From NCBI GenBank assembly GCA_035084275.1, contig CM068753.1:8432001-8496000 (forward strand): a stretch of DNA of 64,000 bases. The letters run 5' to 3'. Numbering within the stretch: the first letter of the stretch is position 1; every line of letters begins with the position of its first letter. Source of the DNA: Hydrolagus colliei. Lineage: Eukaryota. Of the stretch, positions 4,724 to 5,940 are shown piece by piece. Under the pieces are notes generated by a model. The model was not told the DNA's origin and ran no database searches. It was given only the letters and a program-made list of their open reading frames with translations. The translations under genes and the position numbers were made by a program.

Positions 4724-4729
4724 TTTATT
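4724..4729 (-). terminator. Candidate polyadenylation signal (AATAAA) of the CCER1/HEXIM-like gene
   Basis: tttatt on +, ~180 nt downstream of the minus-strand stop, followed on minus by T/G-rich sequence. Confidence 0.6.
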
Positions 4730-4906: not shown

Positions 4907-5485
4907 TCACACCAGGGCGCTCCAGAAGGCGGCGAAGTCGCGCTGCATGAAGTGTTCACTCTCTATCACATCGTCTTCTGACGGGAAGTACTGCAGGCTC
5001 TGGTCCTGATCAATCGATCCGAAAAACCTAATACGGAACCGATTGTCCTCGGCCAAAGGAGACGTGGCGCAGTCCAGGGCGCCCCGGGCGTTCTCCAACA
5101 CCCCCAGGTAGGCGTCAATGTCCAGGTCCAGCTCCACCTCGTCAGCCCCGCTCTCGCTGCCGGTGGAGTCTGACCTCATGTGCATCAGCTGGTATTTCTC
5201 GTGCATCAGGAACTGGTTGGTGTTCCTGGGCGCCCGGTTGCCCCGCAGGTTGACCGGCCGTAAAGCCACCCCTTGGGGGCGTGTTGACGGCGCCTGTCCA
5301 TGGCCACGGCCGCCACCCACTCTAGGGATTTTACCGAACTCCGCCCTTCTCCGCCGCCTGTGCCAGCGAGGCTTGCCCCGGCCTCTCCGGGGTGGCTCTG
5401 CTCTACTCCCGCAGCCTGGCTTGCCCACATCTGACCGCCCTTCCCTGGCCTCCCACTCGGCAGCACCTTCTCTGCTGCCAGACAT
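4907..5485 (-). CDS. Intronless CCER1-like / HEXIM-related protein, 192 aa
   Basis: GC-rich intact ORF with Kozak-like ggaATG; LRPVNLRGNRAPRNTNQFLM resembles CCER1 (LRPVNL...RAPRNTTQFIM) and HEXIM PYNT region; Arg-rich N-terminal motif, acidic middle, C-terminal FMQRDF; own TATA promoter and polyA signal. Confidence 0.85.
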   Translation of the reverse strand: MSGSREGAAEWEAREGRSDVGKPGCGSRAEPPRRGRGKPRWHRRRRRAEFGKIPRVGGGRGHGQAPSTRPQGVALRPVNLRGNRAPRNTNQFLMHEKYQLMHMRSDSTGSESGADEVELDLDIDAYLGVLENARGALDCATSPLAEDNRFRIRFFGSIDQDQSLQYFPSEDDVIESEHFMQRDFAAFWSALV

Positions 5486-5778
5486 TCCTGCCGTGCTGTG
5501 TGACTGCGGCGCTTATCTGTTCACATGCTCTGTAGGGTTGGTTCCGTGCCCGCAAGCACCTGAATTCAGTCTACCTTTTGACTACAGTCTCTGACTTTTT
5601 CTTGCCCCAGCGCCTCTTGCAGTGCATGCCCTGCTGTGGCTGCTCTTTATAACCCGCACCAGCCTTAGGCTTAATAACAAAAACAAGTGAGCGCTCGCCT
5701 TCTCTGTCTCCTCGGAGAAAACTTGTAGAGATAAAACAGCTGCTTAAAAAAACAACAGAGTGTGAGCTTGGCCTCTGC

Positions 5779-5839
5779 TGCAAACTAACAGCCTCTTTTT
5801 TTTTTTTTTTTTTTTAAACTAGTGCAAACTAACAGCCTC
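5779..5839. repeat. 17-bp direct repeat (tgcaaactaacagcctc) flanking T20 + aaactag
   Basis: Copies at 5779-5795 and 5823-5839; T-run 5796-5815. Confidence 0.85.
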
Positions 5840-5854
5840 AGACACAAGCTCAGT

Positions 5855-5940
5855 GTAATGAGAGTCGCTCGTCTTCGGGCAGCTCTTTATAAATACCCCC
5901 ACAGCCCCGCCCCCACCCCAGCGCCGTCTCCGCCAATCAG
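5855..5940 (-). promoter_or_regulatory. Core promoter of the CCER1/HEXIM-like gene
   Basis: Minus strand TATTTATAAAG (~5885-5895), GC box GGGGCGGGG just upstream, CCAAT at ~5933, Inr-like CTCATT ~30-35 nt downstream (~5859); second TATAAA at 5646-5651. Confidence 0.6.

Follow-up and report, generated by a model that had tools for sequence, protein, structure and literature searches.

The window considered here is a stretch of 64,000 nucleotides of chimaera DNA, and the gene under study occupies positions 4907 to 5485 of its reverse strand. It consists of one uninterrupted open frame of 192 codons and a stop, a single coding exon for a protein (P0001) whose homologues form the family wu:fb55g09. 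A preliminary description of the locus had announced an intronless frame of 192 residues, with four modules in the order of the HEXIM proteins and a stop eight residues past the segment SEHFMQRDF: each module lies exactly where it had been placed, this segment at residues 176-184 (4934-4960). The frame is indeed single, but this is not distinctive, since the HEXIM and CCER1 genes of the same genome are single open frames too. One contig of the public run X1 spans all of the frame, and neither substitutions nor indels are listed for it; the run may come from the source sample, and the agreement is not independent support.

The gene sits in a patch of GC content 0.58, versus about 0.40 around it, with an observed/expected CpG ratio of 0.70 versus 0.39. 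Sites that are consensus matches only bracket a transcript of about 1.2 kb on the reverse strand: a TATA box at 5886-5891 with, 46 bases upstream of it, a reverse-oriented CCAAT box at 5933-5937, and an AATAAA polyadenylation signal at 4724-4729, about 180 bases past the stop. The presumed leader contains two upstream ATGs (5521-5627, reverse strand), one opening a frame of 18 codons (5571-5627) and the other a bare Met-stop (5521-5526), which could restrain translation. At 5760-5830 it also holds a duplicated stretch of 16 bases flanking a long A run, and the contig of run X1 is interrupted in this region.

A retrocopy or pseudogene reading is rejected, because the frame is intact, orthologues are found throughout jawed vertebrates, consensus matches for a promoter and a poly(A) signal are present, and HEXIM itself is intronless. 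On the forward strand, the gene is flanked by the last exons of a gene that we take to be NOL8 (1-2500), a label presumed, like KERA and LUM below, from the sequences and human gene order, and by the exons of IARS1 (9331-45000): it stands tail-to-tail with the former and head-to-head with the latter.

A homologue search yields 403 candidates of 105-336 residues, 228 of which match at E<=0.001; what follows on names and taxa concerns the 120 matches listed. Among these, the closest is an uncharacterised protein of Callorhinchus milii (85% identity), followed by shark and ray proteins named wu:fb55g09, with 59-64% identity to the chimaera protein, and then by proteins of coelacanth, gar, bowfin, teleosts, frogs, lizards and birds; there is also a salamander member. 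No mammal or jawless fish is named among the 120 matches listed of the 228, but a loss of the gene in mammals is only suggested, since many matches are unnamed and 108 of the 228 fall outside those listed. An index-free search of 1.84 billion representatives returns 17 matches, all of them members of the family or CCER1-like by sequence, with no HEXIM among them, and a scan of JGI metagenomes yields, from 401 candidates, a single locus, which is a fish-type orthologue. In a tree of 20 of the 130 aligned family proteins and two CCER1 proteins, rooted only at the midpoint, the chimaera protein groups with the members from cartilaginous fish (support 100/99), and the family is separated from CCER1 (support 100/100). 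The 192-residue frame represents the chimaera in the vertebrate family wu:fb55g09, which is uncharacterised, and it is a real gene that sharks and bony fish have in common with amphibians, lizards and birds.

The gene had also been presented as a candidate unrecognised regulator. It is uncharacterised, but already known as a database entry, either under the zebrafish-derived name wu:fb55g09 or as CCER1-like: fish and frog copies are automatically named “coiled-coil domain-containing glutamate-rich protein 1” or “-like”, and many of the genes so named are likely to be the wu:fb55g09 paralogue rather than CCER1 itself. In the accessible part of one paper, fb55g09 appears among the genes up-regulated in the muscle of grass carp, as an uncharacterised one (PMC13361329), and the accessible part of another lists a “C12orf12 homolog”, which could be either paralogue, in a white shark heart transcriptome (PMC3832898): these two entries hint at somatic expression. 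Beyond the carp paper, the name wu:fb55g09 was not found in a search of the open literature.

Conserved and variable regions of the protein

The alignment used in this section contains 130 proteins: the chimaera protein, the 120 matches listed and nine further representatives. Both CCER1 proteins are left out of it, as are P0129, P0133 and P0134, whose sequences are truncated or chimeric; its members were gathered by their likeness to the chimaera protein, so that the conservation counts given below are inflated. All the features lie on the reverse strand of the window.

The N-terminal region, residues 1-84 (5234-5485), is predicted to be disordered and has a net charge of +15. The family median is about +16, with a range of +10 to +24, and the region is basic in every member counted, but its sequence is not conserved: it has zero invariant columns. 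The Arg-rich run RRGRGKPRWHRRRRR at residues 33-47 (5345-5389), presented earlier as one of the four modules, is lineage-specific, with 10 Lys or Arg in the best window of 15 residues, where the median of 116 proteins is 6, and HRRR is found in only 6 of the 130 members. The region ends near a block LRPxNxxG (5240-5263), shared with CCER1 but not with HEXIM, in which LRP.N is present in 119/130 proteins. After this block, and before the next motif, the chimaera protein differs from its relatives by a deletion of five residues, common with Callorhinchus, where 117 of the 130 proteins have GMRAP; the deletion site falls at 5234-5239, residues 83-84, and the salamander member shows a similar loss.

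Next comes APRNTNQFLMHEKY (5192-5233), the counterpart of the PYNT motif of HEXIM, which includes APRNTNQFLM at residues 85-94 (5204-5233). Twelve of its 14 positions are identical in all 129 rows that have a letter. With respect to the HEXIM motif PYNTTQFLM, seven of nine letters are retained, P, N, T, Q, F, L and M being invariant (129/129), and the second Thr is replaced by Asn; P86, T89 and F92, which correspond to P202, T205 and F208 of HEXIM1, are among the invariant residues. Position 87, the counterpart of Y203, is R in 77 rows, K in 40, Q in 6 and E in 4 of the 129, and never Y: the change from PYNT to PRNT, noticed in the chimaera protein, is supported, mostly as P(R/K)NT in the family.

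A stretch rich in Ser, Asp and Glu follows at residues 105-124 (5114-5173). The net charge past the motif is -14 in the chimaera protein, with a median of -15 in 116 proteins, and the pattern of a basic part followed by an acidic part is conserved across the family. Two further conserved blocks have no place in HEXIM: a middle helix at residues 123-137 (5075-5119), in which G135 and L137 are invariant, and a block SxxYxPSxxD (4970-4999), with S163, Y166, P168, S169 and D172 present in 130/130 proteins and a weak echo in CCER1.

The chain closes on a predicted helix, residues 170-191 (4913-4978), with pLDDT 95-98. Residues F179, M180, D183, F184 and F187 are present in all 130 proteins, and F179 and F184 correspond to F262 and F267 of HEXIM1, a register checked on PDB 2gd7 by way of the HEXIM of the same genome. 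The position of Y271 is occupied by Cys in 123/130 proteins and, in the chimaera protein as in Callorhinchus, by Trp; the position just before it is an invariant Phe. The chimaera protein terminates at the position of H275, and family chains usually end about there. The tail past the second Phe has 8-22 residues in 129/130 proteins versus 98 in HEXIM, which bears out the proposed loss of the coiled coil. The preliminary description expected its motifs to be conserved in orthologues: the P(R/K)NT motif and the FxxxxF pair are, and the basic motif is not. The AlphaFold2 model is mostly disordered (mean pLDDT 62.5, pTM 0.26), with helices at residues 89-105, 123-134 and 170-191, and a Foldseek search with this model returns nothing at E<=0.001.

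A probable kinship with CCER1

Genome-wide searches with the protein and with the Pfam CCER1 profile (PF15482) find only two copies, and one weak match containing stops on contig C77. The second copy, P0122 (L002:1468-2040; C13:18,080,724), has 190 residues and 36% identity to the chimaera wu:fb55g09 protein; it scores 48.6 bits, above the cut-off of 27 bits of the Pfam profile. The wu:fb55g09 protein itself scores 21.9 bits, and the cut-off is passed by six of the seven orthologues scanned (36.2-43.3 bits), the remaining one reaching 22.9. In the ESM Atlas, the top match of the protein is a cluster that is 93% PF15482 (score 0.94, 209/256 features), with a recognition value below the usual mark; the same atlas gives no usable match for the paralogue.

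The neighbourhoods of the two copies can also be compared. Along C13, ATP2B (17.86 Mb) is followed by P0122 (18.08), then by three proteoglycan genes (18.12, 18.15 and 18.20), the third of which matches decorin/biglycan, and by BTG (18.34). On C20, the contig of the window, the order is BTG (8.33), CENPP (8.35-8.41), which hosts nested proteoglycan genes including osteomodulin, the wu:fb55g09 gene (8.437), IARS1, and ATP2B (8.59 Mb), whose best PDB match is ATP2B2, narrowly ahead of ATP2B1. Four gene families are paired between these blocks, and within its block the wu:fb55g09 gene is inverted, compared to CCER1, relative to ATP2B and BTG. The proteoglycan clusters are genome-duplication copies of each other; we know of no BTG gene at the matching human position, 9q22. 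An exon at C20:8,328,281 (L006:3281-3739), which presumably belongs to ATRIP by its resemblance, lies head-to-head with the BTG-family gene at the end of the block of CENPP and proteoglycans. The 400 kb upstream of the ATP2B gene of C29 contain no third paralogue, and no proteoglycan or BTG gene either.

Human CCER1 is clustered with EPYC, KERA, LUM and DCN, according to the accessible part of PMC3997350, and P0122 is therefore likely to be the CCER1 orthologue. The strict CCER1 position, beside this cluster, is held by P0122 and not by the gene of C20, which is not a CCER1 orthologue. From gene order, we infer that the wu:fb55g09 gene and CCER1 are sisters born of the early vertebrate genome duplications, a conclusion that we hold to be very likely.

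The two genes have in common, besides paired neighbourhoods, a single exon, the block LRPxN...APxNTxQFLM (positions 134-199 of the Pfam profile) and, with the chimaera CCER1, the EKY, middle-helix and FxxxxF blocks. They differ by their locus and by the glutamate-rich coiled coil of CCER1 (C12orf12), which is absent from the chimaera wu:fb55g09 protein and also from the likely chimaera CCER1; and the 192 residues of the former compare with 403-406 for CCER1 in mouse and human, as reported in the available text of PMC10713660.

A probable kinship with HEXIM

The true HEXIM of the same genome, on C35, has 345 residues and scores 187.8 bits against the Pfam HEXIM profile (PF15313). The chimaera wu:fb55g09 protein matches this profile with E=0.0064 and 17.2 bits, under the cut-off of 29 bits. 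All nine family or CCER1 proteins scanned match it, with E-values of 7.8e-6 to 0.03 and 15.0-26.6 bits; the best of them is the CCER1 of Callorhinchus (E=7.8e-6, profile positions 37-119), still below the cut-off at 26.6 bits.

In the other direction, HEXIM obtains 13.6 bits from a family profile made with neither HEXIM nor CCER1 sequences, and the two motifs align in order. Of 1,999 whole shuffles scored, the highest reaches 6.1 bits, and of 2,000 local shuffles 3.3. Among 8,831 six-frame open frames, a background to which the three loci in question had been added, HEXIM ranks third, behind the wu:fb55g09 gene and CCER1, with E=0.0024, the next being at 0.77. By itself, the second motif scores 0.5 bits against HEXIM. 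HEXIM thus stands above all shuffles and background frames; against this, hhalign aligns only 14 columns of the family with HEXIM, at a probability of 57.5%.

The likeness is confined to two short motifs. In the PDB, the protein has 0 matches up to E=10 and the family profile one chance match, and neither search finds the solved chains of HEXIM1. BLASTP of CCER1 versus HEXIM gives 10/12 with E=0.001. The pattern AP.NT.QFL has 8 occurrences in the 754,836 translated codons of the loci examined, each of them in the wu:fb55g09 gene, its fish orthologue L027, the CCER1 paralogue or HEXIM. The two motifs are separated by 72 residues in HEXIM, 84 in CCER1 and 78-152 in the family. The likely chimaera CCER1 is nearer to HEXIM than the wu:fb55g09 protein is: the two proteins of this chimaera type match 9/10 letters of the PYNT motif and keep a Tyr as the counterpart of Y271.

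The family resembles HEXIM1 and HEXIM2 by the order of its parts, basic, PxNTxQFLM, acidic and FxxxDF, by the counterparts of P202, T205, F208, F262 and F267 and, in the chimaera, by an intronless coding frame; it differs by its additional conserved blocks. On the strength of the two motifs, their order and spacing and the charge pattern, common descent with HEXIM is likely, if slightly less so than the sisterhood with CCER1, and the proposal of a divergent protein of HEXIM and CCER1 kinship, with two HEXIM motifs in HEXIM order, is supported. However, the gene should not be classed as HEXIM, because it scores under the Pfam cut-off and has neither the arginine-rich signature (ARM), nor counterparts of Y271 and H275, nor the coiled coil; Y203 is missing as well. 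The idea that the RNA-binding element for 7SK had been retained fails on the same ground: the HEXIM ARM patterns, [KR]H[KR][KR][KR] and basic-PS-basic, each occur in 0/130 proteins, and what is conserved of the N-terminus is only its net positive charge.

The chimaera genome has two tandem copies of HEXIM, 9.4 kb apart, at L004:1204-2208 (C35:7,925,139) and L003:1105-2142 (C35:7,934,543). They share a core of 526 bases that is 99% identical, and their N- and C-terminal ends differ, which suggests gene conversion and is reminiscent of the mammalian pair HEXIM1/HEXIM2. Two single-base indels of the upstream copy are absent from the contig of run X1 that covers the core, and may therefore be assembly errors; this contig may itself merge both copies.

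A possible contact with P-TEFb

To our knowledge, HEXIM1 and HEXIM2 have been treated as the sole proteins of their kind, always dimers gated by 7SK. What is known of their contacts is taken here from the accessible parts of the papers cited. The PYNTTQFLM motif of HEXIM1 binds CDK9 (PMC12901311, PMC10083321), and P202, T205, the Phe of the motif and Y271 are crucial for recruiting P-TEFb and inhibiting it (bioRxiv 10.1101/2023.02.19.529146; this Phe is numbered 207 there, and is 208 when counting from P202). Cyclin T1 binding requires F262, F267 and H275; F262 and F267 lie N-terminal to the dimer domain, F267 is also needed in a distant nematode protein, and Tat and HEXIM1 use a common groove of cyclin T1 (PMC4227133). 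The ARM, two basic runs joined by Pro-Ser, binds 7SK, and the coiled coil plays a part in the binding of cyclin T1 (PMC10083321). Autoinhibition acts between the two chains of the dimer and is lifted by 7SK, and the 7SK specificity of HEXIM1 depends on the dimer (PMC12901311).

The family keeps two motifs that correspond to the P-TEFb-gripping parts of HEXIM and has lost both the RNA-binding signature and the pairing coil, so that it is likely to be a stripped-down offshoot of HEXIM. It is tempting to conjecture that this small protein, predicted to be mostly disordered and probably a sister of CCER1, engages P-TEFb as a single chain. Its last helix would dock on cyclin T, and the APRNTNQFLM motif would cover CDK9 and damp its activity; binding would proceed without 7SK. 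Since the autoinhibition of HEXIM acts between chains and is lifted by 7SK (PMC12901311, accessible text), a chain without dimer coil and ARM would escape this gating: its own expression level would control it, and it would contend with HEXIM for both sites on P-TEFb.

All these binding steps are read from motif conservation, and they do not carry equal weight. We lean towards a contact between the cyclin T groove and F179/F184; that CDK9 is damped by the P-x-N-T-x-Q-F-L-M motif has slightly less than balanced chances; and the reading as a whole, a HEXIM-derived single-chain ligand of P-TEFb that damps CDK9 without 7SK gating, is tentative and a little more doubtful still. In its favour, three of the four crucial residues of HEXIM1 (P202, T205 and the motif Phe, but not Y271) have counterparts that are invariant in the alignment. 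Against it, Y203 is never kept, and the counterparts of Y271 and H275 and the coiled coil are lost; the invariant blocks without HEXIM counterpart would also point to other partners.

The protein could, on the contrary, be an activator: docked on cyclin T with CDK9 still active, it would displace HEXIM and free or recruit P-TEFb as Tat does. The counterparts of F262 and F267 are invariant while those of Y203, Y271 and H275 are lost, as such a role would have it, and Tat does share the cyclin T1 groove (PMC4227133, in the part available). Mouse CCER1, a condensate protein of spermatids, raises the transcription of Tnp1/2 and Prm1/2, and its loss lowers the Tnp/Prm transcripts (available text of PMC10713660), which does not fit a simple brake. 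However, the counterparts of P202, T205 and F208 are invariant in 129/129 rows, and a dropped CDK9 contact would be hard to reconcile with this; we regard an activator as rather unlikely.

Unlikely to the same degree is that the gene descends from HEXIM but has given up P-TEFb, its motifs serving a different cyclin-CDK pair, self-association or a condensate in the nucleus. The invariant LRPxN, EKY, middle-helix and YxPSxxD blocks and the conserved basic-then-acidic charge pattern would suit such a change of use, as would CCER1, which forms condensates and is described, in the accessible text, with mention of neither P-TEFb, CDK9 nor 7SK (PMC10713660). In two supplementary files of that paper, Cdk9, Ccnt1/2, Larp7, Hexim1 and Mepce are likewise absent. 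But the terms “mass spectrometry” and “BRDT” are also absent from the same text, which may therefore not have sought partners; and the residues retained by the family are precisely those that map to the P-TEFb contact in HEXIM.

The preliminary description suggested a monomeric 7SK binder or decoy, which would occupy 7SK through the Arg-rich run. Every member counted does have a strongly basic N-terminal region, and HEXIM1 has been described as a promiscuous binder of double-stranded RNA (PMC10083321, accessible part), but a region that has neither an ARM pattern in any of the 130 proteins nor an invariant column, together with a 7SK specificity that depends on the dimer (PMC12901311, likewise), makes this improbable. 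Least probable of all is that a CCER1-type family unrelated to HEXIM acquired both motif matches by convergence or chance: the 14 aligned columns, the scores under the Pfam cut-off and a HEXIM locus on C35, outside the paired blocks of C13 and C20, would agree with it, but two motifs in the same order at similar spacing, a HEXIM score that no shuffle or background frame approaches, and the Callorhinchus CCER1 match along profile positions 37-119 all argue against it.

In a search of the open literature, no paper that connects CCER1 with HEXIM or CDK9 came to light, and the terms HEXIM3, CCER1-like, ccer1l, HEXIM-related and HEXIM-like led to nothing on the wu:fb55g09 gene. That gene order pairs this gene with CCER1, and that both are likely to descend from HEXIM, is new within that literature. 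One may speculate further, with more doubt than for the single-chain ligand itself, that CCER1 and wu:fb55g09 form, in jawed vertebrates, a second and unrecognised HEXIM branch that regulates P-TEFb without 7SK or dimer, and that human CCER1 controls spermatid transcription via a putative contact of its HEXIM-derived motifs with CDK9/cyclin T. If this were true, a conserved single-chain relative of HEXIM would provide fish, amphibians, reptiles and birds with a 7SK-free tuning of pause release. Mice that lose CCER1 are infertile, and its loss has been linked with azoospermia in men; this gene, explained so far only by phase separation (PMC10713660, available text), would gain a concrete hypothesis and a testable mechanism.

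The single-chain ligand was also submitted to complex prediction, with residues 70-192, a mite CDK9 domain as stand-in and a sawfish cyclin T2, alignments not being used. The scores are 0.47, 0.51 and 0.48, and those with unrelated partners 0.00 and 0.00; the prediction falls short of its mark because a control in which CDK9 was replaced scored 0.44, and it speaks neither for binding nor against it. Several invertebrate records (P0263-P0267 and P0269) carry two CDK9 kinase domains per chain, and are probably merged tandem genes.
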